NCBI GenBank assembly: GCA_043804415.1
Contig: JAZDJA010000297.1
Span: 3,911-67,910 of the forward strand
DNA: 64,000 nt
DNA from: Candidatus Latescibacterota bacterium
Lineage (GTDB): Bacteria > Latescibacterota > 4484-107
Reading direction: 5' to 3'
The notes beneath the pieces were generated by a model. That model made no database searches, was not told the DNA's origin, and worked only from the letters and a program-made list of their open reading frames with translations. The position numbers were made by a program, and so were the translations under genes. Below are positions 2,884 to 58,919 of this stretch, one piece after another; position 1 is the first letter of the stretch, and every line of letters starts with the position of its first letter.

Positions 2884-3765
2884 TCAGGAAAGAACGCAAA
2901 CCGGTTTGAGCACTTCTGAGCAGTGCGCGACGCCGAGAAAGTCGCCATGTGCTCCGATGACTCTTGCGGTTTCCTCGCCGGGCCTGTCTTCCAGGACATC
3001 CCACTGATGTACAGGTGCGCCGTTTCGGAAGCGCGCTTCTTCGGTTTCCGAGAGCTGCACCCGAAGGAGCGGACTGAGCGCCTCGTTCATAGAGAGCACA
3101 TGCGCCCCCATCGTGCCGTCCTTTGCGCAGGAGGCAACCTGGCTTACGGAGAGGCTTTGCGTTTCGTCAAACGGCCCGCATCGCGTCCGCCTGAGCGCTG
3201 CAAGATGTGCACCCGGCCCCAGCCTTTCGCCCAGGTCGTGGGCCAGCGCGCGGATATACGTGCCTTTTGAGCAGACGACCCGGATGTGGAGGATCGGGGC
3301 TCGATAGCTCAGGATCCTCAATTCAGAGAGGGTTACTGTTCTCGGCTTTCTGGCGATCTCCTGTCCCTTGCGGGCGAGTTCATAGAGTTTCGTGCCGGCT
3401 ACTTTAACCGCAGAAAACATCGGAGGGATCTGCTCAATGCTCCCCCGAAAGTGCTCGCACGCGGCTTCGAGTTCGGGCATCGTGAAGTTCGGCACTTCCG
3501 TGGTCTTTTCGACCCTGCCCTCGGCATCGAAGCTATCGGTCGTGATCCCCAGCCGGACTTGGGCAGTATAGGATTTCTCGTCCGTGTCCAGAAATTGGAT
3601 GATCCGCGTGGCCCGCCCCAGACAGATCACCAGGACGCCGACGGCCATTGGATCGAGTGTTCCGGTGTGTCCCACGCTCTTTTGACTTAGGATCTTCCGA
3701 ATGCGAGCCACTACATCGTGCGAGGTCCATCTCTGCTCCTTGTCAACAATGAGAACGCCGTCCAT
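2884..3765 (-). CDS. truB: tRNA pseudouridine(55) synthase
   Basis: The 293 aa product starts MDGVLIVDKEQRWTSHDVVARIRKIL and contains the catalytic motif GHTGTLDP. Operon position is consistent. Confidence 0.9.
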   Translation of the reverse strand: MDGVLIVDKEQRWTSHDVVARIRKILSQKSVGHTGTLDPMAVGVLVICLGRATRIIQFLDTDEKSYTAQVRLGITTDSFDAEGRVEKTTEVPNFTMPELEAACEHFRGSIEQIPPMFSAVKVAGTKLYELARKGQEIARKPRTVTLSELRILSYRAPILHIRVVCSKGTYIRALAHDLGERLGPGAHLAALRRTRCGPFDETQSLSVSQVASCAKDGTMGAHVLSMNEALSPLLRVQLSETEEARFRNGAPVHQWDVLEDRPGEETARVIGAHGDFLGVAHCSEVLKPVCVLS

Positions 3766-3863
3766 CGGGACCTCGTGAAAATGCCTTCAGCGAAGCTCCC
3801 CAGCCAAAAATGTGCAGGACCCTTTCAGGCTGCTTTGACTTGGGGGTTGGAATGTGGCGGGGG

Positions 3864-23245: not shown

Positions 23246-23587
23246 TCAAAAGCCGTCCGCCGGATGATCGGGTTGGGTTTTTTCAAGAAAGAAAGCCAAG
23301 ACCTTTTCGGAAAGGGCGTTGCCTCTATGCTTGTGATCAGGACCACTTGGAATGAAAATGCCGTCTCCTGGTTCATACACTATCCTTGCGTTTTCATATT
23401 CAATTTCCATTTGGCCCTGGATAAGATAACCATAATGTCCCTTCTCACACCAGTGGCGTGGCATCCCTTTTGAGTACTCAACCAGACTCATGCGCAACTC
23501 ATTCTGGCCAATATATTTGTGTCTCATGCCCTCGATCGGAGATTCCCATTCAAGTTTGTCAAAAGGTGCTTTATATTGGATTGTCAT
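23246..23587 (-). CDS. Small cupin-domain protein (cupin_2-like), encoded on a low-GC gene
   Basis: From the ATG at 23587 the product is MTIQYKAPFDKLEWESPIEGMRHKYIG...GDGIFIPSGPDHKHRGNAL (113 aa). The two-His cupin motif pattern is present. Local GC is clearly lower than in flanking genes. Confidence 0.7.
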   Translation of the reverse strand: MTIQYKAPFDKLEWESPIEGMRHKYIGQNELRMSLVEYSKGMPRHWCEKGHYGYLIQGQMEIEYENARIVYEPGDGIFIPSGPDHKHRGNALSEKVLAFFLEKTQPDHPADGF

Positions 23588-23662
23588 CTGAACTCCGTTT
23601 TGGGCCTGACCCAAGGATAACGTCCTTCCTGAAATCATTATCAGCCGTTCTCGCTTGGAACC

Positions 23663-50462: not shown

Positions 50463-50616
50463 ATCATTCTCCATGCAAGTCACCCAGTGAAAGACAATGA
50501 GGATTCGTGGACAAAGGGCTATATTCCCTATTCGCTGTCTTCTTTTGAGTTCCATGGTGAGGCATCTTTCCCGCCAAACGGTGACAACCATGAAGTTTCC
50601 TTGCACTCGATGTGCC

Positions 50617-50648
50617 AAGCCCAACAGAACTCCTTGTTGGGCTTTCTT
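50617..50648 (+). terminator. Rho-independent terminator after the ABC transporter pair
   Basis: The sequence is AAGCCCAACA-gaactcc-TGTTGGGCTT followed by TTCTTG. That is a perfect 10 bp GC-rich stem with a U-rich tail. Confidence 0.6.
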
Positions 50649-50830
50649 GCGGCAGAATAGAGAATCTCGCCAGCCTCATGCGAAAGCCATGTAGCGGGCG
50701 AAGGTCTTCTGAAATTGTGCGAATAGAACACCAGCAATACTCCTGTGATCCCTGGTCCATCCGATGTCAGATGGCCAAGACCATTCCTGTTCTATGGTGT
50801 CCTATTCCATCTCTTTGTCTCAAGGATAAA

Positions 50831-51520
50831 ATGGAACTGAAAATCAAAGATATTGTCGATCTATTGCAGGTGTCTGAAAAAACGGTATACCGCTGGATCA
50901 AGGAGAAGAAGATTCCCTGTTACCGCATTCATCATCATTACCACTTCAATCGTGCAGAAGTAAATGAGTGGATCATGAGCAATGGGATCGGATTATCGAC
51001 CCAATTGCTGAATCTACCCCTGACTGGAAGGCCGACCCATCTTACTGACCTGCTCCTGCATGGCGGAGTCTACACGGGTATTACCGGAAATACGATTCGG
51101 GATGTTCTGCACAACGCCATCGAATCCATTGATACCCCTCAGGATATGGATAAGGAAGACATTATTTCAGCATTGCTGAATCGTGAAGAACTGATGTCCA
51201 CGGCCATCGGAAACGGTATAGCCATTCCACATCCCCGTAAGCCGTTGATCACCAATGTCAAGGATGCCAGTGTGTCTATCTGTTTCTTAGCAGAAGGGGT
51301 GAATTTTGGTGCACTGGACGGACATCCGGTACATACGCTATTCCTGCTGTTAACGTGCAGCCCCAGGAGACACCTGGAAGTATTATCCAAAATATCTTAT
51401 CTGTGCCAGATGGATGATTTTCGGTCTATGCTTGAACGTCGTGCTTCAGCACAGGAAATAAGTGATTTTGTTCAGGGGAAAGAACGGTCATGGCAGCAGA
51501 AGGAGTTGGCTGAGCGATGA
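50831..51520 (+). CDS. Fusion regulator: N-terminal excisionase/MerR-like HTH plus C-terminal PTS EIIA (PtsN/EIIA-Ntr-like) domain
   Basis: The product begins MELKIKDIVDLLQVSEKTVYRWIKEKKIPCYRIHHHYHFNRAEVNEWI (an HTH_17-like module). The C-terminus contains ...STAIGNGIAIPHPRKPL... (EIIA-2 phospho-histidine loop). Its stop overlaps the next gene start (ATGA at 51517-51520). Confidence 0.75.
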   Translation: MELKIKDIVDLLQVSEKTVYRWIKEKKIPCYRIHHHYHFNRAEVNEWIMSNGIGLSTQLLNLPLTGRPTHLTDLLLHGGVYTGITGNTIRDVLHNAIESIDTPQDMDKEDIISALLNREELMSTAIGNGIAIPHPRKPLITNVKDASVSICFLAEGVNFGALDGHPVHTLFLLLTCSPRRHLEVLSKISYLCQMDDFRSMLERRASAQEISDFVQGKERSWQQKELAER

Positions 51521-53493
51521 ATCTACTACTTATTGGGGTTGCCTTATTTTTCGCAGCTGGATTGGTAGCCATCCCTTTGCCACAAAAGAGAAAGGGAATA
51601 GCGTATGTCAGCTTCGCTGCATCAGCGCAGATTTTCATTCTGCCGTTGGTGATAAAGGCATTGTTGGGAAGCCCGACACTGAATTTGTCCGTTCATTTTT
51701 CCGGACCCATTGGAGATGTAACTCTGCTACTGGATCCACTTGCTGCTTTCTTCATGTTTTTCATCTCGCTCGGCGGATTGCTTGCTGGTATCTATTCGCT
51801 CGGCTATATGAAAATGTATCAAGATAGTGATCGTCATTCTCTTTCCACTTATTACTTTTTCATGGGCTTGTTGGTTGTTGCCATGCTTCTCGTTGTCATC
51901 GTACAGAATGCCCTGTTCTTTTTGATCGTCTGGGAAATCATGTCACTGGCATCCTTCTTTCTGGTCAGTTTTGAACACCAGAAAGAAGAAGTGCGAAAAG
52001 CAGGACTCTATTATCTGATCGCCATGCAAATTGGCGCAGCAGCGCTGCTTGTTGCTTTCGGCTGGAGCACTGTATTGACTGGCAGCATGGATTTTGGTGC
52101 ACTATCCACACTGAGTCCGGCAGCAGCCACGTTTGTTTTCATTTTGTTCTTTATCGGTTTTGGCACTAAAGCTGGTTTTGTTCCCCTGCATACCTGGCTC
52201 CCGCTGGCACATCCGGCGGCGCCGACTGCTGTGTCTGCCATGATGTCCGGCGTGATGATCAAAACTGGAATTTACGGCATTTTGCGGATCATTTTGATCA
52301 TCGGTGTTCCCAGCCCTTGGCTCGCGTATCTGGTTTTTGGAATTGCGCTGCTTTCCGGTCTTCTGGGAGTCATACACGCCATAGCTCAACACGATTTGAA
52401 GAAGCTACTTGCCTACCATAGCATCGAAAATATCGGCATTATTGGTTTGGGGATTGGCGTGGGCATGCTGGGAATAATAAGTGGGCGAGCACTCATTGCG
52501 GTCGCAGGTTTCCTGGGCGCGCTGTTGCATGTATTCAATCATTTTACGTTCAAAAGTTTGCTCTTCTATGGAGCCGGAATAATCTACTCAAAAACGCACA
52601 CGCGAAATATCGATCAATTGGGCGGATTGGTTCGCGTTCTGCCTTACACGGCCGCGCTTTTTCTGATTGGCTCACTGGCCATCAGCGGGCTTCCACTCCT
52701 AAGCGGTTTTGTCAGCGAATTTGCCGTCTATTTCGGAATGGCTCAGAGCCTGTCTGAGCATAATATATATCTTAATGTGACAGCTGGAATCGGCCTTGCT
52801 GGACTGGCTCTTATCGGTACCATGGCTGCATTATGTTTCACCAAAGTGTTCAGCATATGCTTTCTTGGCAATCCACGAACGAGTTGGCAGGGCACCCCTT
52901 CCGAAGCTTCATCGACCATGCTGGCGCCCATGATTGTACTGGCGAGTTTCATAGTTTTCATCGGGTTGTTCACCCCGCTGATCCTTCCATTTCTCTCCGG
53001 GGTGGTGAAGCAATTCTGTCATGAATCTTTCTATCCCGCATGGAATGAAATTCTGGATATCTTTCTGGAGATCAATGGTGCGCTATTGATTTTCGGGGGA
53101 CTCATTCTATTCTTTATAGGATTGCGCTGGATGTTGTTACGTAACAAAACGGTCGCTCTATTCAAAACATGGGATTGTGGTTACCAGGCTCAAAGCAGCC
53201 GCATTCAATATACTGCCAGCTCATTTGCCTGCTCCTTTCTGAGGTTGGCGGCCAACATAGTGCCGCAGAAGAAGCATATCGTTCGTCCGCAGGGGTTGTT
53301 TCCGACACAGGCGCTCTATGAGAGCCATAGCGACGACCTGATTGCGCGCTGGATGATTCGACCGCTTGTCGGCCTGTTACACTATTTTCTCGGGCTGCTA
53401 TCGTGGATTCAGAGCGGACATACCCAACAATACATTCTTTATGGTCTGGTCTTTCTGGTTATGCTCGTCATCTGGGTTATCGGAGTCCGCTAA
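51517..53493 (+). CDS. NuoL/MnhA-type antiporter-like membrane subunit (HyfB/HycC-like)
   Basis: The 658 aa polytopic product contains the motif HTWLPLAHPAAPTAVSAMMSGVMIKTGIYG, shared by complex I NuoL/M/N and hydrogenase-3/4 membrane subunits. Confidence 0.8.
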   Translation: MNLLLIGVALFFAAGLVAIPLPQKRKGIAYVSFAASAQIFILPLVIKALLGSPTLNLSVHFSGPIGDVTLLLDPLAAFFMFFISLGGLLAGIYSLGYMKMYQDSDRHSLSTYYFFMGLLVVAMLLVVIVQNALFFLIVWEIMSLASFFLVSFEHQKEEVRKAGLYYLIAMQIGAAALLVAFGWSTVLTGSMDFGALSTLSPAAATFVFILFFIGFGTKAGFVPLHTWLPLAHPAAPTAVSAMMSGVMIKTGIYGILRIILIIGVPSPWLAYLVFGIALLSGLLGVIHAIAQHDLKKLLAYHSIENIGIIGLGIGVGMLGIISGRALIAVAGFLGALLHVFNHFTFKSLLFYGAGIIYSKTHTRNIDQLGGLVRVLPYTAALFLIGSLAISGLPLLSGFVSEFAVYFGMAQSLSEHNIYLNVTAGIGLAGLALIGTMAALCFTKVFSICFLGNPRTSWQGTPSEASSTMLAPMIVLASFIVFIGLFTPLILPFLSGVVKQFCHESFYPAWNEILDIFLEINGALLIFGGLILFFIGLRWMLLRNKTVALFKTWDCGYQAQSSRIQYTASSFACSFLRLAANIVPQKKHIVRPQGLFPTQALYESHSDDLIARWMIRPLVGLLHYFLGLLSWIQSGHTQQYILYGLVFLVMLVIWVIGVR

Positions 53494-54410
53494 TGCAAAA
53501 AGGAATCTGTCTACTCATCATCTTGATGGTCCCGTTTGTCTTTACAGGCCTGATAAACCGGGTAAAAGCGCTTTGGGCGGGACGCAGAGGCGCTCCATTG
53601 TGGCAGCCATTCTACGATTTCAGGAAACTGCTGAGAAAAGGGGACGTGCTCAGCAAAACAACCTCATTTGTGTTTCGCCTCAGTCCGTCACTGAATATTG
53701 CAGCCGTTATTTTTGTCGCCCTGATCATCCCATTGCCACAGCAAAAAGCCATAATCAGCTTTCCCGCTGATTTCGTACTGTTCGCTTACACGCTGGGACT
53801 GGCAAGATTCATGCTAGTCCTTTCTGCGATGGATACAGGCAGTCCGTTTGAAGGCATGGGAGCTGCCCGTGAAGTTACCTTCTCCAACATCGTTGAGCCT
53901 GCTTTCTTCGTGCTGATCGGTTCTCTGGCGCTGATTACCGGACAGACTTCATTTGAATCTATTTTTGCGCAACTGAATACCAGCGCCCGCTATACGGTGC
54001 TTGTGAAATCGCTCTGCCTGGCGTCCCTGTTTGTCATGCTGCTAACCGAAGGATCGCGGTCGCCGGTGGACGATCCCAACACCCATCTGGAACTGACCAT
54101 GATTCACGAAGTGATGATCCTCGATTATTCGGGTCCTGATCTGGCATTTATGCAGTATGCCTCCGGTCTGAAAATGGTGGTCATCACCGCCCTGATGGCC
54201 AATCTGTTCGCACCCTCAGGAGTCGGAGCGCTATATGGTATCATGATTTTTCTGATCGTGCTGGCTGGGGTCGCGGTGGCTATAGGATGGGTCGAATCTT
54301 TTTTCGCCAGGCTGAGAATGTCGCATGTTCCCCAGTTTATTTTTATGATGGTGGCCTTGTCGGTAACTCTCTTTGCCGTAGTAATATTTTTTCTGTACGG
54401 AGGGAATTAA
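53493..54410 (+). CDS. NuoH/HycD-like membrane subunit (formate hydrogenlyase subunit 4-like)
   Basis: From the ATG at 53493 (a TAATG overlap with the upstream gene) the product contains RRGAPLWQPFYDFRKLL and LDTGSPFEGMGAAREV, matching the HycD/NuoH signature regions. It is 305 aa. Confidence 0.8.
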   Translation: MQKGICLLIILMVPFVFTGLINRVKALWAGRRGAPLWQPFYDFRKLLRKGDVLSKTTSFVFRLSPSLNIAAVIFVALIIPLPQQKAIISFPADFVLFAYTLGLARFMLVLSAMDTGSPFEGMGAAREVTFSNIVEPAFFVLIGSLALITGQTSFESIFAQLNTSARYTVLVKSLCLASLFVMLLTEGSRSPVDDPNTHLELTMIHEVMILDYSGPDLAFMQYASGLKMVVITALMANLFAPSGVGALYGIMIFLIVLAGVAVAIGWVESFFARLRMSHVPQFIFMMVALSVTLFAVVIFFLYGGN

Positions 54411-55045
54411 TGGCTGACGTTGTGATCATTCTGCTTGGTACCGGTATGTTTTATGTTTTCGCAGCCAGCCGTATTGAAGCCTTCATTAAGACACTGGCAT
54501 TACAGGGGATGCTACTATTTCTGCTTGTCATTATCGATCTTCGCGAAATCAACTGGCTCAACATCGCTTTTTTGGTTTTGGAAACGCTGGTCATCAAATC
54601 AACGGTGATTCCCTTGTTTCTGTTGAATGCGATTCGTCGTAACGAGATCGACCGTGAAGTGGAGCCGTATGTATCGCAGTTCTATTCGCTGATGATCGGC
54701 AGTATCATTTTTATTTTCGGATTTGTCGTCGCTTTCTGGGCTGCTCGCGTGGAACCAGGCATACATCCGCTCTATTTTGGTGTGTCTATAGCGCTGATCA
54801 TTGCCAGTCTGTTTCTTATTGTTACCCGCAAACGCATTATCACCCATATTCTCTGCTTCATGATGCTGGAGAACGGGATCTTTCTGCTATCCCTATCCGT
54901 TGCCCATGAGATGCCTATGCTGGTTAATCTGGGTGTATTGCTTGACCTCTTTGTAGGCCTATTCCTGTTGGTGATCTTTTTCAACAAAATACAATTGATG
55001 TTTGATGGCAGCCATATCGATGTATTGACTCAATTGAAGGATTGA
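54410..55045 (+). CDS. HyfE-like small polytopic membrane subunit
   Basis: The ATG at 54410 overlaps the upstream stop (TAATG). The product is about 211 aa with six transmembrane segments. Its position and size match hydrogenase-4 component E. Confidence 0.6.
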   Translation: MADVVIILLGTGMFYVFAASRIEAFIKTLALQGMLLFLLVIIDLREINWLNIAFLVLETLVIKSTVIPLFLLNAIRRNEIDREVEPYVSQFYSLMIGSIIFIFGFVVAFWAARVEPGIHPLYFGVSIALIIASLFLIVTRKRIITHILCFMMLENGIFLLSLSVAHEMPMLVNLGVLLDLFVGLFLLVIFFNKIQLMFDGSHIDVLTQLKD

Positions 55046-55047
55046 AC

Positions 55048-56478
55048 ATGTTCATTCTGATGCTATTTGCACCCGTTGTTTTGGCTGCGCTCGTCATGTT
55101 CTGGCAGAACCGGTTTGTGATTCGTCTTTCACTTCTGGCCGCCGCCGCTCTCTACCTTCTTGCGGCTTTCGGCTGGGGGTTCGACTTCATTCACAAGGAG
55201 GTGGATGGTTGGCTGTCCAATTATTTTCAGATTGATGCCATTGGTCTTTTCTTTCTGACCATTATGGCGCTGGTATTCGCCGGAACGGCCATTTACAGCC
55301 TGTTCTTCTTTAAGGAGACCGGTACAGGTGTTCCTCAGGAAGCGCGCTACGTAGCTTCTATGCTCCTATTTGTGGATGCTATGGCGGGGGTCATATTAGC
55401 CAGCCATCTGGGGCTATTGTGGGTTTTTGTGGAAGCGACAACCCTGACCAGCGCCGTGCTGATCTATTTTGAAAAGAAAAAATCATCCTTGGAAGCGGCC
55501 TGGAAATACGTGTTTATCTGCTCAGTGGGTATAGCCATGGCCTTTGTTGGGATCATCATTTTGTCAATGGGCAGCAGAAGCATCGGCACACTCTTTTTCA
55601 CCGATCTGTATCAACGTGCCTACGAAATCAATCCATTTTGGCTTAAAATGGCATTTGCCTTTATTCTGGTCGGCTTTGGCACCAAAGTCGGTATAGCGCC
55701 GATTCATGCCTGGCTGCCAGACGCCCATTCCGAGGCTCCTTCCCCAGTATCCGCTTTGCTTTCAGGCACTCTGCTGAACACCGCTTTTCTGGGTTTAATA
55801 CGCGTGCAGGAGATCATGATTCAGGCTAGACTCGATTCCTTTTCAAATCTGCTATTGCTCATTACCGGATTTCTATCATTATTGATCAGCGCTGTATTTA
55901 TGCTGGGTACCGTCAATTACAAGCGGATGCTGGCCTATTCCTCCATTGAGAACATGGGGATTCTGTTTATCGGCATTGCCATGGGTAAGACGGGCATCTA
56001 TGCCGCCATGCTCCACACGGTGGCGCACTCGCTCTCCAAGTCATCCCTGTTTCTCACATCGGGGAATATTCTGCACCTGTATGGAAGCAAAAAAATTTCT
56101 GATGTGAAAGGGCTGCTGCATCGGGAACCGCTTACTGGTTGGCTCTGGATCGTATCTTTGCTGGCGATTATCGGACTGCCACCGTTTCCATCATTTCTGA
56201 GTAAATTTCTATTGATCACAGCTTTTTTCGAAGCGGGTCAGGGCTGGTTGGCTGTTCCCTTCTTTCTGTTTGTCGCAGTGATTATCTATGGCATGGGGGG
56301 AGCAATATTCCGCATGTCATTCGGTGATCTTCCGCCAGGAACCTGCCTTTCCCCAAAACTGGGCCTGAGCGCCTACATCCCCCAGGTGGTCTTTTTGTTG
56401 GGGTTGGCAGCGATTGGAATCTATATACCGGAACGGGCCCTGGCATTTATTCAGAGCGCCGCCGGATTCTTGAAGTAG
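55048..56478 (+). CDS. NuoN/M-type antiporter-like membrane subunit (HyfF/HyfD-like)
   Basis: The product contains the motif IHAWLPDAHSEAPSPVSALLSGTLLNTAFLGLIR. It is about 476 aa. Its start is adjacent to the upstream TGA. Confidence 0.8.
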   Translation: MFILMLFAPVVLAALVMFWQNRFVIRLSLLAAAALYLLAAFGWGFDFIHKEVDGWLSNYFQIDAIGLFFLTIMALVFAGTAIYSLFFFKETGTGVPQEARYVASMLLFVDAMAGVILASHLGLLWVFVEATTLTSAVLIYFEKKKSSLEAAWKYVFICSVGIAMAFVGIIILSMGSRSIGTLFFTDLYQRAYEINPFWLKMAFAFILVGFGTKVGIAPIHAWLPDAHSEAPSPVSALLSGTLLNTAFLGLIRVQEIMIQARLDSFSNLLLLITGFLSLLISAVFMLGTVNYKRMLAYSSIENMGILFIGIAMGKTGIYAAMLHTVAHSLSKSSLFLTSGNILHLYGSKKISDVKGLLHREPLTGWLWIVSLLAIIGLPPFPSFLSKFLLITAFFEAGQGWLAVPFFLFVAVIIYGMGGAIFRMSFGDLPPGTCLSPKLGLSAYIPQVVFLLGLAAIGIYIPERALAFIQSAAGFLK

Positions 56479-56487
56479 AGGAATAAT

Positions 56488-57978
56488 GTGGTGAATTGGA
56501 CTGAAACAAATAATTTGCAGGCCGTGGATCTGGCGGACATCCCACAACTGCCGATTGATTCATTCCGTTCTCAAATTTTGGAAAGTCTTGCTGCCAAACG
56601 GCGATGTGTACAATTCTTCGGGGATGAGGAGGGAGACAAGGTAATCGTCTACGCAGTGCTGGCTGATCACCATCTTTCCCGACTGTATGTCGCTGCCACT
56701 GTTTTTGACAACGAAAAGAAATATCCCTCGCTTACGCCTCAGGCGCCGTCCATGCACCTGTTCGAACGGGAATTGTTTGAGCAGGTCGAAATCGAACCAC
56801 TAGGACATCCCTGGCTAAAGCCGGTGCGCAAGGGAATTGCCGGTATCCGTGCCACTGAAACGCCCTATCCGTTTTTCCAGATGGATGGTGAGGAGACCCA
56901 TGAGGTGGGTGTGGGACCCATCCACGCCGGCGTCATCGAGCCCGGACATTTTCGCTTTTCCTGTCACGGTGAGGAAGTCTATCATCTTGAAATTGAGCTG
57001 GGATTTGGACACCGCGGCGTGGAGGATCTATTCATTCGCCACCGCGAACGACCGAGCTGTTTGCTTCACTTAGCCGAATCTATTGCCGGTGATACGGTCA
57101 TTGGTCATGGCGGCGCCTTTGTCAGAGCGATGGAATCGTTAAGCGGGATTTCGGTTTCCCGTCGGGCTATGATCGTTCGTACTGTTGCCCTGGAATTGGA
57201 GCGTGTCGGCGTTCATCTCGGCGATCTGTCTGCATTGGCGGGTGACGTGGCGTATCTCACCGGCAATGCGATCTTCGGCGCGCTGCGCACCCGTGCGATC
57301 AATACCAGTATGGCTGTCTGTGGAAGCCGTTTCGGGCGTGGTTTGCTCGCCATCGGTGGAATTCGTTTTGATATTTCCAATGAGCTGAGAAAGACCATTG
57401 AAACCACGCTGTCGGAAGTTGAGGACCAGGTGGAATTGGCTGGCGCAGTGATGTTTTCATCTGCATCAACCATGGAGCGATTTGAGAAAACAGGCGTCGT
57501 TTCCGAATCGACGGCGATCGAAATCGGGATGGTTGGGCCAGCCGCCCGCGCCAGTGGTCGCGCAATGGACGTGCGTGCAGATTTTCCGTTTGGCCCGTAT
57601 AACCAGTTTCCGGTTCATCCAATCACTTACCATACGGGGGATGTGTTCGCCAGGGCCTATATCCGCTATGTCGAGATCAAACAGTCCCTCCGAATCATAA
57701 GAGAGCAGTTGGCCAACCTCAGTGGTCAAACGCTGAAATCTCAGAAGGCCGCCTTGCAGCCCAATCGTCTGGTCGTTTCATTGGCTGAAGGCTGGAGAGG
57801 GGAAATTGCCCATGTCGCAATTACGAACGCTGATGGCAAATTGAGACGCTACAAGATCAAGGACCCCTCATTCCATAACTGGCTGGCCTTGGCGCTTGCG
57901 GTACGCAATGAAGGAATATCTGATTTCCCATTGTGCAACAAAAGCTTCAATCTGTCCTATTGTGGGTTTGACCTATAA
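56488..57978 (+). CDS. Fused NuoC-NuoD-like 'large subunit' (HycE-like) without the canonical [NiFe]-site cysteines
   Basis: The product contains VGVGPIHAGVIEPGHFRF...GFGHRGVEDL. Where group-4 hydrogenases carry E-R-x-C-G-x-C-x-x-x-H, the sequence here is ESIAGDTVIGH. The C-terminus ends DFPLCNKSFNLSYCGFDL and lacks a DPCxxC motif. The start is GTG at 56488 or 56491, after a GAGGAA ribosome-binding site. Confidence 0.8.
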   Translation: MVNWTETNNLQAVDLADIPQLPIDSFRSQILESLAAKRRCVQFFGDEEGDKVIVYAVLADHHLSRLYVAATVFDNEKKYPSLTPQAPSMHLFERELFEQVEIEPLGHPWLKPVRKGIAGIRATETPYPFFQMDGEETHEVGVGPIHAGVIEPGHFRFSCHGEEVYHLEIELGFGHRGVEDLFIRHRERPSCLLHLAESIAGDTVIGHGGAFVRAMESLSGISVSRRAMIVRTVALELERVGVHLGDLSALAGDVAYLTGNAIFGALRTRAINTSMAVCGSRFGRGLLAIGGIRFDISNELRKTIETTLSEVEDQVELAGAVMFSSASTMERFEKTGVVSESTAIEIGMVGPAARASGRAMDVRADFPFGPYNQFPVHPITYHTGDVFARAYIRYVEIKQSLRIIREQLANLSGQTLKSQKAALQPNRLVVSLAEGWRGEIAHVAITNADGKLRRYKIKDPSFHNWLALALAVRNEGISDFPLCNKSFNLSYCGFDL

Positions 57979-57996
57979 ACCTATCAGGAACTCGCC

Positions 57997-58782
57997 ATGT
58001 TTGAGTTGCTCAGAGCTCGCAAAAACCACGGCTTTCAGGCTATACGTGATATTGGTAGTGCCCAGTTGCCATCCCCATTTCGTGGTTTCCCGCTGCTGGA
58101 TGAAAAATGCTGCACAAAGGATTGCGGCGCCTGTGCCGAAGTTTGCCCAACTCATGCCATCCAGCTTAAGCCGCTGCAAATAGATTTGGGTCGCTGTATT
58201 TTCTGCGGCGATTGTGTTCACGAATGTCTCTCCGGCGCCATCGAGTTCTCCTCCCAATATCGCTTGGGCAATATGAGCCGCGATGGGCTGGTTATTCCCT
58301 CAGCGCTGACTCCCGAGCACTACCAAGAAGAAGCCATTGTCGCACGGAAGGAAATCAGGCGCCTCTTCGGCCACTCGCTCAAATTGCGTCAGGTTTCTGC
58401 TGGCGGCTGCAACGGGTGCGAGATGGAACTCGCGGCTGCCGGAAATGTTAATTTTGACATGGGGCGATTCGGTTTTGATTTTGTCGCTTCTCCTCGTCAC
58501 GCAGACGGCCTCGTGATCACGGGCCCGATTTCGAGCAATATGGCTCCGGCGCTTGTGGATGCCTACAATAGTGTCAGTCAACCACGACTGGTCATTGTGG
58601 TTGGTGCCTGCGCAATCAGTGGTGGCGTGTTTGTCGAATCTGATCAACTCCATCGCAGCTTTCTGGACAATGTAGCGATCGATCTCTTTATTCCCGGATG
58701 TCCGACACACCCATTGACCTTTATTAATGCCTTACTCGATCTTCTGGATAGAAAGAAGAACAGAACAGCCAGAACCTCCTGA
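57997..58782 (+). CDS. Fused 2x[4Fe-4S] ferredoxin (HycF/NuoI-like) plus NuoB/HycG-like small subunit
   Basis: The N-terminus carries CCTKDCGACAEVCP...CIFCGDCVHEC, which is two CxxCxxCxxxC(P) ferredoxin motifs. The C-terminus carries SAGGCNGCEMEL...VVGACAISGG...IPGCPTHP (the NuoB cluster-N2-type cysteine pattern). Confidence 0.8.
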   Translation: MFELLRARKNHGFQAIRDIGSAQLPSPFRGFPLLDEKCCTKDCGACAEVCPTHAIQLKPLQIDLGRCIFCGDCVHECLSGAIEFSSQYRLGNMSRDGLVIPSALTPEHYQEEAIVARKEIRRLFGHSLKLRQVSAGGCNGCEMELAAAGNVNFDMGRFGFDFVASPRHADGLVITGPISSNMAPALVDAYNSVSQPRLVIVVGACAISGGVFVESDQLHRSFLDNVAIDLFIPGCPTHPLTFINALLDLLDRKKNRTARTS

Positions 58783-58919
58783 AAAGGGAACAAAATAGCG
58801 GGCGGGATCTGCCTCTGAAAATATGCGGATTCCGCATAAAGGATAATTGTATGATTCCACATTCATTCTCAGTGTGGCAGATACCGAGTTGTCCTTCGCT
58901 CGCATAAACGGAGGCCAGG

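Follow-up and report, generated by a model that had tools for sequence, protein, structure and literature searches.

Complexes of the energy-converting hydrogenase-related (Ehr) type, which are related to the group 4 [NiFe] hydrogenases and do not carry the [NiFe] cysteines, were reportedly given this name by Marreiros et al. in 2013. The Ehr complex of Riflemargulisbacteria, published in 2019, comprises a NuoC-NuoD fusion, a NuoI-NuoB fusion, HyfB, HyfF, NuoH and HyfE (PMC6349859, Supplementary Note 4). The same study placed Melainabacteria, Lentisphaerae and Spirochaetes in the same Ehr group, also described Saganbacteria, left the function unassigned and speculated on a formate dehydrogenase (FDH) partner (PMC6349859). 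An Ehr complex has been reported in Nitrospira (PMC10284858), and additional Ehr clades have been described (PMC10284858, PMC7304191); a search of the literature on Ehr complexes found no experimental report. Here, a locus within 64,000 nucleotides of contig JAZDJA010000297.1 from a Candidatus Latescibacterota bacterium was analysed; this whole stretch is referred to as the window, and the coordinates of its genes are positions within it. Seven consecutive plus-strand genes in the list of open reading frames (ORFs), at 50831-58782, code for a regulator of the HTH_17–EIIA type followed by six Hyf-like subunits. As judged by sequence, these subunits constitute an Ehr complex, a system that is already described and very widespread. 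The locus is probably a self-contained, horizontally acquired Ehr operon with a dedicated regulator, whose product would be fed by ferredoxin, use a non-H2 acceptor and be coupled to ion movement.

The large subunit (56491-57978, plus strand) is a fusion of a NuoC-like 30 kDa domain (PF00329) and a NuoD-like 49 kDa domain (PF00346, 7.7e-39). The initial annotation gave it 496 aa; the likeliest start is the GTG at 56491, which yields 495 aa and agrees with both an identical database entry (P0001) and the family N-terminus MNW. When PDB sequences were searched with phmmer, HycE (7Z0S chain E, 6e-47) and MbhL (6CFW, 4.5e-38) ranked at the top, followed by Nqo4/NuoD of complex I, such that homology extends to both the group 4 [NiFe] large subunit and NuoD. 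Group 4 [NiFe] hydrogenases carry CGxCxxxH in the first ligand motif (L1) and CxxC in the second (L2). Opposite RVCGICGFAH of HycE, as also found in HyfG, and RMCGICSFSH of MbhL, the window protein reads ESIAGDTVIGH, with alanine and threonine in place of the two cysteines. At L2, close to the C-terminus, NLSYCG lies opposite DPCYSC of HycE, with serine and glycine in place of cysteine. The four ligand positions are thus occupied by A200, T203, S490 and G493. The nearest relatives with four cysteines read ER[IV]CG[VA]C..H and FPL[IV]NKSF[EN]LCY[SA]C.DR, and the frame FPLxNKSFxLxYxxxD is common to them and the window protein (FPLCNKSFNLSYCGFDL); at the C-terminus, KSFELCYSCxDR in these relatives matches KSFNLSYCGFDL in the window. 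Given this shared flanking frame, the anchoring of the motifs is secure and the replacement of all four ligands is real. The alignments therefore bear out two earlier statements, namely that both L1 cysteines are replaced by Ala and Thr and that the C-terminus has no DPCxxC, NLSYCGFDL standing opposite DPCYSCTDR in HycE and ELCYSCxDR in the four-cysteine relatives. Since the protein terminates where mature HycE does (D-L as against D-R), it is without the C-terminal peptide that HycI cleaves off. It had also been claimed that hyp, endopeptidase and formate dehydrogenase genes are absent, and none (hyp, hycI or fdh) was found among the larger ORFs of the window that were scanned.

Absence of the ligands is a property of the family to which the window protein belongs. 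An exhaustive search covered 1.84 billion cluster representatives; the best 150 were aligned, and 127 of these, including the window protein, span all four ligand positions. None of the four cysteines is present in 108 of the 127, the first alone is present in 12, three are present in one and all four in six. In a neighbour-joining (NJ) tree of 477 columns, which is rough and without support values, the cysteine-less sequences form a large monophyletic clade that is sister to the four-cysteine clade, and the window protein groups with them, apart from true group 4 hydrogenases. A word-indexed search, in which all 8000 candidates examined had E values of 1e-10 or lower, listed 120 sequences that are 61-100% identical to the query. 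The genome scan showed that at least 593 loci, in species-level genomes, carry relatives. The 80 of these that were kept come from Bacteroidota, Ignavibacteria, Zhuqueibacterota, Spirochaetota, Gastranaerophilales and other Melainabacteria, and Acidobacteriota, together with Planctomycetota, Verrucomicrobiota, Lentisphaerota, Zixibacteria, Desulfobacterota, Binatia and Clostridia. Subunits are 45-80% identical across phyla, and all loci of sufficient length have the genes in the order B-C-E-F-G-I. Close homologues are found in relatives of Ignavibacteria or Melioribacter, L006 being from an uncultured Melioribacter sp.

The window locus also has the remaining hallmarks of an Ehr complex, in that a NuoB-like protein with an intact proximal [4Fe-4S] cluster, a NuoH-like subunit and antiporter-like subunits are encoded in one cluster. 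Its subunit set is identical to that described in PMC6349859, and the window protein has relatives with 46-56% identity in phyla named there. The proposal that the complex is of the Ehr type and not a hydrogenase was therefore upheld by the four missing ligand cysteines, by the placement in the cysteine-less clade and by the published six-subunit set (PMC6349859). Nothing essential separates the window from the systems in the Ehr papers; the Latescibacterota host, the FCB-type subclade (Ignavibacteria, Bacteroidota, Zhuqueibacterota) and the linkage to an HTH-EIIA gene are not discussed there.

Conservation of the pocket was measured in 83 loci with 45-100% identity, in which ∼20 pocket residues are invariant. 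The signature consists of E151, E197, D202, H207, D253, R281, C483, N484, K485, Y491, C492 and D495. Residues present in all 83 loci include the run I150-E151-P152-G153-H154-F155-R156-F157, C159, G201, D202, D253, G279 and R281 and, in the C-terminal part, N484, K485, L489, Y491, G493, D495 and L496. Relative to the four-cysteine sisters, the Ehr-specific states are D202 (V or A in the sisters), D253 (G), S/T198 (R) and L496 (R). E151, in the beta1-beta2 loop, is the equivalent of E21 of MbhL, a proton-relay residue reported to be absent from MBS and complex I (PMC7684303). D253 stands opposite D139 of Nqo4, which belongs to the quinone site of complex I; His38 and Tyr87 of Nqo4, which ligate the quinone head group, are by contrast opposite I150, which is invariant, and A200/G201, respectively. 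Given that the frames are intact and the pocket residues invariant across more than 10 phyla at 45-80% identity, decay is excluded. Strong constraint also acts on every other functional element, namely E151, the hydrogenase-type proximal [4Fe-4S] cluster and at least one further [4Fe-4S] cluster, the acidic loops of the NuoH-like subunit and the Glu/Lys chain in the two antiporter-like subunits.

Cysteines of the large subunit show a conservation of their own. C159 is found in 83/83 loci, C483 in 82/83 and C492 in 67/83. In 81 of the 83, a cysteine stands at position 278 only (52 loci), at position 200 only, which was formerly the first NiFe ligand (21 loci), or at both (8 loci), an alternation that may reflect phylogeny and not compensation. 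Position 278 is near the proximal cluster, five residues before the one that matches Nqo4 H169. An AlphaFold2 single-chain model of the subunit had a mean pLDDT of 73 and a pTM of 0.77, with residues 127-152 and 466-496 below a pLDDT of 50. Foldseek identified HycE as the best fold match (TM score 0.76), followed by E. coli NuoCD and MbhL.

Iron-sulfur clusters are assigned to the small subunit (57997-58782, plus strand, 261 aa), in which a NuoI/HycF-like 2x[4Fe-4S] domain (Fer4 families) is fused to a NuoB/HycG-like 20 kDa domain (PF01058, 3.2e-25). For the proximal cluster, C138 and C141 (GCNGCE) are invariant in 77 of 77 sequences, and conservation of GACA..GG and PGCP is 95% or higher. The spacing in GGCNGCE equals that of HycG and HyfI; it is a hydrogenase-type CxxC and differs both from the CC found in complex I and from the shortened motif with three ligands found in MBS (types as in PMC7684303). 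The tandem Cys-Cys pair that ligates N2 in NuoB is accordingly replaced by GGC-NG-CE in the window. In the ferredoxin-like part, C50, C67, C70 and C73 are likewise invariant (77/77). The second, distal cluster (C39, C43, C46, C77) is complete in the window, and each of its ligand cysteines is found in 61-82% of the 77 sequences. This cluster has been lost in some Ignavibacteria-type and Melainabacteria lineages (L001, L017, L021, L064), whereas the other is invariant, and lineages may therefore differ in where electrons enter.

The four membrane subunits precede the large subunit on the plus strand. A HyfB-like, antiporter-like protein of the NuoL/Mrp class (51517-53493, 658 aa; PF00361, 7e-54) is 35% identical to E. 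coli HyfB (E 1e-103) and scores 548 bits on the NCBIfam HyfB model, whose cut-off is 667. Its channel residues E140 (transmembrane helix 5), K218 (helix 7), K249 (helix 8), K346 and E401 (helix 12) are conserved in at least 95% of 66 sequences, and its W.CGY loop is common to HyfB and HycC. The NuoH/HyfC/HycD-like membrane anchor (53493-54410, 305 aa from ATG 53493; PF00146, 1.7e-36) is 35% identical to E. coli HyfC and has two acidic loops, D.GS.FEGMGA.RE and E..R.P.DDP.THLELTMIHEVM, that are conserved in at least 95% of 67 sequences. Next follows a small HyfE-like membrane subunit (54410-55045, 211 aa) that matches the NCBIfam hydrogenase-4 membrane subunit (4.7e-13) and, weakly, NuoK (PF00420); it is 28% identical to E. 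coli HyfE and its ENG motif is conserved. The HyfF-like, antiporter-like subunit of the NuoN/M class (55048-56478, 476 aa from ATG 55048; PF00361, 2.4e-56) is 39% identical to E. coli HyfF (E 2e-83), with E131, K215 and K333 conserved. Taken together, the four membrane subunits retain residues that ion translocation would be expected to need. Start codons of the NuoH-like, HyfF-like and large subunits were refined by comparison with orthologues, in which the NuoH-like protein has 305 aa (L001) and the HyfF-like protein 476 aa. All NCBIfam Hyf and Nuo matches of the six subunits score under the curated cut-offs; thus, no subunit is an equivalog of a named Hyf or Nuo subunit.

The complex was further compared with three related systems. 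The E. coli Hyf/FHL-2 (HyfA-J) and FHL-1 (HycB-G, 7Z0S) complexes share with the window the order B-C-(D)-E-F-G-(H)-I, the fold and 27-39% identity in every subunit, HycE is the best PDB match in both sequence and fold, and GGCNGCE is found in the small subunit. The window differs in that the four [NiFe] cysteines are replaced, in that the HyfA/HycB connector, HyfD, HyfJ/HycH, HycI and the C-terminal extension are absent, in the fusion of HyfH with HyfI, and in having an HTH-EIIA regulator where Hyf and Hyc have a sigma-54 activator (HyfR/FhlA). MBS/Mbx of Pyrococcus furiosus (6U8Y; PMC7684303) is similarly a complex I-like, ferredoxin-driven pump with a large subunit devoid of NiFe, and establishes that such [NiFe]-less complexes can work with another acceptor, sulfane sulfur (PMC7684303). 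MBS, however, keeps two of the four cysteines, has a shortened proximal motif with three Cys ligands and has no equivalent of MbhL E21 (PMC7684303), whereas the window has none of the four, a full CxxC and E151. The multi-subunit Mrp Na+/H+ module of MBS is absent, the membrane genes of the window being HyfB, C, E and F only, and MbsL is a weak match to the large subunit (3e-21, compared with 6e-47 for HycE); the window complex is thus outside MBS/Mbx. Finally, the Q-module of complex I/NDH-1 (Nqo4/NuoD, Nqo6/NuoB, Nqo8/NuoH) resembles the window in fold (TM score 0.71-0.76 to E. coli NuoCD), in the NuoC-NuoD fusion, which E. coli also has, and in the correspondence of D253 with Nqo4 D139. By contrast, H38, Y87 and the N2-adjacent H169 are replaced (I150, A200/G201 and G283), CxxC stands in place of CC, and neither a NuoEFG module nor a NuoA, NuoJ, NuoM set is encoded.

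The first gene of the locus (50831-51520, plus strand) encodes a 229-aa regulator with HTH_17 (PF12728, 1.2e-13) and PTS EIIA-2 (PF00359, 1.1e-25) domains, the latter being a fold with a phosphorylatable histidine. Its best PDB matches are PtsN proteins (2a0j, 2e-12, then 3urr, 4gqx and 1a6j), and H134 in GIAIPH aligns with the phosphorylatable His in GVAIPH of 2a0j. Among 37 orthologues, residues G127, G129, A131, P133 and H134 of GxGxAxPH are each at least 90% conserved. The earlier description of the protein as a PTS-Ntr-type regulator thus agrees with both the nearest solved structures and the retained phospho-histidine motif. It is not a stand-alone equivalog of PtsN/EIIA-Ntr (∼150-160 aa), scoring 57.4 bits on TIGR01419 against a cut-off of 138.7. 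Furthermore, PtsN works via protein-protein contacts, whereas the window protein has an N-terminal HTH_17 fusion and is therefore predicted to act directly on DNA.

Linkage between this gene and the complex is widespread. Of 65 loci with sufficient upstream sequence, 41 have the regulator gene immediately upstream and in the same orientation; these are 36 of 60 from the genome scan (those with at least 900 nt upstream) and all 5 further loci, of which two were close relatives and three had been chosen by way of the regulator itself. It is missing from 24 loci, namely 21 of the gut Melainabacteria-type clade and single loci of Acidobacteriota, Spirochaetia and Desulfobacterales; nearly all loci beyond that clade have it. 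In the Desulfobacterales locus (L064, 3568-5025), HTH-EIIA is replaced by a sigma-54 response regulator (Response_reg, Sigma54_activat and HTH_8), which recalls HyfR and FhlA. Four Melainabacteria-type loci checked had no recognisable upstream regulator; two ORFs there match CxxCxxCC and diacylglycerol kinase, and two match nothing. Identity of the regulator to its counterparts is 58-64% in relatives from Bacteroidota, Ignavibacteria and Zhuqueibacterota (with database matches reaching 80%) and 30-49% in other phyla. By this measure, the regulator diverges in step with the complex.

Within 370 nt upstream of HTH-EIIA genes, the hexamer GGAC[AT][AT], mostly as TGGACAT or TGGACAA, is enriched (52 occurrences in 40 loci, against 22.4 ± 4.5 in shuffled sequence). 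It often occurs as pairs 10 bp apart, at approximately -90/-80 on the plus strand in FCB-type loci and -50/-40 on the minus strand in PVC-type loci, and is borne by L001, L003, L006-L008, L010, L044, L058, L061, L076, L083, L084 and L087. It may be regarded as a candidate operator or promoter element. Other EIIA proteins were seen nearby: in L085 (6853-8613), a Na+/H+ exchanger fused to PTS_EIIA_2 is encoded directly upstream of the regulator, and in L087 (18295-18690), an EIIA and CBS protein lies beside a CitMHS-type transporter. These neighbours hint that EIIA domains control ion transporters in these bacteria.

A profile search (Pfam and NCBIfam) recovered all seven plus-strand genes with the domains proposed in the initial annotation. 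The overlaps of stop and start codons proposed there were likewise found, with ATGA at 51517-51520, TAATG at 53491-53495 and 54408-54412, and TGAACATG at 55043-55050; the quoted protein motifs are present in the translations, except that the NuoH-like subunit reads MDTGSPFEG and not LDTGSPFEG. The view that the genes at 50831-58782 form one operon that includes the regulator is supported by these overlapping codons and by the recurrence of the regulator upstream on the same strand. In the intergenic region ahead of the regulator (50463-50830, 368 nt), a plus-strand promoter scan gave no sigma-70-like site above shuffled expectation. A terminator scan was at or below shuffled expectation. The palindrome TATGCGGA-T-TCCGCATA (58824-58840), read from the sequence, has perfect 8-bp arms and begins 42 nt past the last stop codon, and was not called by the scan. 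Given that no T-run is present, it may be a transcript-end hairpin or terminator stem or a protein-binding site.

The composition of the locus is consistent with its arrival by horizontal transfer. An AT-rich island with flanks above 60% GC had been proposed; the island was recovered (46-53% GC per 1 kb), but the flanks are at 52-62%, mostly 54-60%. The seven-gene block has a GC content of 49.5% and the rest of the window 56.9%, a difference of -7.4 points. GC content at third codon positions (GC3) is 0.49-0.58 in the seven genes and 0.59-0.76 in nearly all other ORFs of the window, the few other low-GC3 ORFs being short and mostly doubtful, plus a small cupin gene. This cupin-domain gene (23246-23638, minus strand, 130 aa) is a second outlier, with 45.5% GC and a GC3 of 0.47 among neighbours of ∼56-60% GC. 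Could the low GC instead be a native property of the operon, arising from the amino-acid bias of membrane proteins or from expression-linked codon usage? Strong hydrophobicity marks four of the seven products (FILVMWA content of 55-57% in the three tabulated), and the island borders have no direct or inverted repeats beyond chance, no tRNA, no Rfam match and no integrase among the neighbours. Nevertheless, the soluble products are shifted too (GC3 of 0.49 for the regulator, 0.56 for the large subunit and 0.54 for the small subunit), whereas three other membrane proteins of the window have GC3 values of 0.69-0.72. Moreover, the operons of 71 relatives have a mean offset of +1.1 GC points (range -8.4 to +6.7) from their respective flanks, such that the dip is not a property of the family. 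Membrane-protein composition was therefore rejected as its cause, and we consider a native origin of the low GC very doubtful.

Comparison with other genomes points the same way. The nearest relatives' operons have 45-48% GC and reside in low-GC genomes. Similarity at the DNA level to these relatives (72%) spans the seven genes only, beginning at ∼50823 in the comparison with L083, and the flanks differ in every genome compared. In the NJ tree, the window protein stands beside a Zhuqueibacterota sequence inside an Ignavibacteria/Bacteroidota subclade; the other Latescibacterota copy (L067), a distant version with 48% identity and 72% GC, is placed elsewhere. Horizontal acquisition, as first suggested in the initial annotation, is thus supported by the computed GC and GC3 shifts, the lack of a dip in the 71 relatives and the grouping with Zhuqueibacterota and Ignavibacteria. 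In L083 (77% identity), which of the relatives with a readable flank is the closest, the genes of a RelB/YafQ toxin-antitoxin pair (3333-3862) lie ∼0.5 kb upstream of the regulator, which fits a mobile or variable neighbourhood.

Neighbouring genes offer no partner for the complex. In the window, an FtsX/ABC transporter pair lies upstream and Dtd, Hsp20 and an HtrA-type protease lie downstream; the larger ORFs scanned in the rest of the window are housekeeping genes, including IF-2-region genes, ProRS, LpxC/D, BamA, TamB and ClpC/McsB. All-against-all clustering of flank genes from 84 loci gave nothing recurrent beyond the seven genes, and no redox partner. The lack of a recurring flank family fits a ubiquitous soluble donor, and the lack of a cis-encoded partner argues for ferredoxin as donor and against an obligatory FDH partner. 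One locus, from Phycisphaerales (L079), has a second partial set downstream on the opposite strand (small, NuoH-like, large and small subunits), giving the arrangement RBCEFGII'C'G'I'.

The mechanism that we propose is drawn by analogy with MBH, FHL and MBS (PMC7684303, PMC9474812) and from general knowledge. A soluble low-potential donor, most likely reduced ferredoxin, would dock on the exposed NuoI-like domain, and electrons would travel through the Fe-S clusters to the proximal cluster. A non-H2 acceptor would then be reduced in a remodelled pocket featuring two Ehr-specific residues, D202 and D253, together with cysteines of the family (C483, C492 and C278), within a cavity formed by the large, small and NuoH-like subunits. 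Formation of H2 from protons is excluded because there is no NiFe site. Via the loops of the NuoH-like subunit, the reaction might be coupled to the translocation of H+ or Na+ by the HyfB-like and HyfF-like subunits; translocation of ions by the Ehr complex is suggested by the same analogies. The HTH_17-EIIA(Ntr-like) protein, which may control the operon, would bind near its own promoter, with the phosphorylation state of H134 acting as the switch. Such a switch would tie expression to phosphoenolpyruvate (PEP), to carbon/nitrogen status or to ion homeostasis by way of a PTS phosphorelay.

Several points weigh against this proposal. The donor, the acceptor and the pumped ion are assigned by analogy with MBH, FHL and complex I, and the activity, expression and assembly of the complex are presumed. 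With pLDDT values below 50 at the pocket, the model gives no ground for placing the conserved Asp and Cys residues around a single cavity. In the 64 kb window, no ferredoxin or PFOR gene was seen, and no ptsP, ptsO, ptsI or ptsH (PTS EI/HPr) was found among its ORFs that were scanned. The gut Melainabacteria-type clade has the complex without the regulator, such that the regulator is not essential to the complex. Finally, the window has a single exact GGACAA, at 50509 (-322), and the motif is therein not clearly close to the gene.

Among the other readings of function, the acceptor might be a membrane quinone, in which case the complex would be a minimal ferredoxin:menaquinone oxidoreductase like NDH-1, Fpo or 11-subunit complex I. 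The Ehr-invariant D253, which aligns with Nqo4 D139 and is Gly in the hydrogenase sister clade, would suit such a role, as would a NuoH-like subunit with conserved loops. Many of the host phyla (Ignavibacteria, Acidobacteriota and Planctomycetota among them) also use menaquinone. Against this stand the replacement of Nqo4 H38 by the invariant I150 and of Y87 by A200/G201, the hydrogenase-type CxxC at the proximal cluster where complex I has a tandem CC, and the abundance of the complex in gut Gastranaerophilales, which are regarded as fermenters. Ehr-carrying Riflemargulisbacteria, moreover, are without quinone biosynthesis (PMC6349859). A quinone is thus a possible acceptor even though the usual ligands are lacking, and we judge this reading unlikely. 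Rather less likely still is thiol or sulfur chemistry, in which polysulfide or a disulfide would be reduced, as in MBS/Mbx, through the family cysteines or the proximal cluster. The cysteines gained by the clade and absent in the hydrogenase sisters (C483, C492, C159, and 200 or 278) are compatible with such chemistry, and MBS, itself a [NiFe]-less relative, reduces sulfane sulfur (PMC7684303). However, the catalytic feature of MBS is a proximal motif that is three residues shorter and has three Cys ligands, whereas the window has the full HycG spacing, and the large-subunit cysteines that MBS retains have been proven non-catalytic (PMC7684303). Distant Ehr clades are also without these cysteines (54 of 144 representatives have none at 200 and 278), and the proximity of the cysteines in three dimensions is not readable from a single-chain model. 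Sulfur or thiol chemistry in the pocket is therefore possible but unsupported.

It is improbable that, as put forward in PMC6349859, the complex is instead the membrane part of a larger enzyme, with the catalytic partner encoded at another site. By homology the scaffold is that of FHL-2, and FHL docks FdhF through HycB; yet the operon has no HycB/HyfA-type connector, and neither FDH nor another dehydrogenase is conserved in the flanks of the 84 loci or present in the window. An N-terminal ferredoxin-like domain, moreover, is a typical entry point for ferredoxin, as in MbhN and NdhI, and this too counts against a dedicated partner. The remaining alternative, that the complex is still a hydrogenase with unconventional metal ligands or else a decaying and non-functional remnant, is scarcely credible. 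The scaffold and the proton-relay Glu (E151, MbhL E21) are kept, and one subclade retains the first L1 cysteine. Nevertheless, of the 127 full-length representatives among the closest 150, 120 lack at least three of the four ligands, there is neither a C-terminal maturation extension nor a hyp or hycI gene in the window, and decay is ruled out by the intact frames and the invariant pocket noted above.

In comparison with the preferred reading, that of a ferredoxin-fed and ion-coupled Ehr complex with a non-H2 acceptor, a bolder proposal can be made tentatively, which we judge unlikely. According to this proposal, the Ehr pocket would be a newly built catalytic site and not a hydrogenase site that was emptied, in which D202 and D253 were gained at the former NiFe position and combined with the clade-specific C483, C492 and C200/C278, next to a fully ligated proximal cluster and the retained proton-relay Glu. 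The site might hold a different metal or substrate, and the module would be a ferredoxin-driven cation pump whose expression is set by a DNA-binding homologue of PtsN.

The window adds no new kind of system; its increments are the HTH-EIIA companion, a list of pocket residues, the lack of a partner enzyme in cis and quantitative support for transfer. Of these, the Ehr-specific invariant residues D202, D253, C483, K485 and Y491 provide a short list for mutagenesis, and the HTH-EIIA companion provides a handle on when the complex is expressed and offers a genetic switch. Ehr complexes rank among the larger “known unknowns” in microbial bioenergetics, and carriers of the present subfamily include gut Melainabacteria, Ignavibacteria, Spirochaetota and PVC phyla. 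If the bolder proposal is true, the energisation of the membrane would be linked to a PTS-Ntr signal for carbon, nitrogen and K+ in anaerobes of very many kinds, among them relatives of the gut Melainabacteria.

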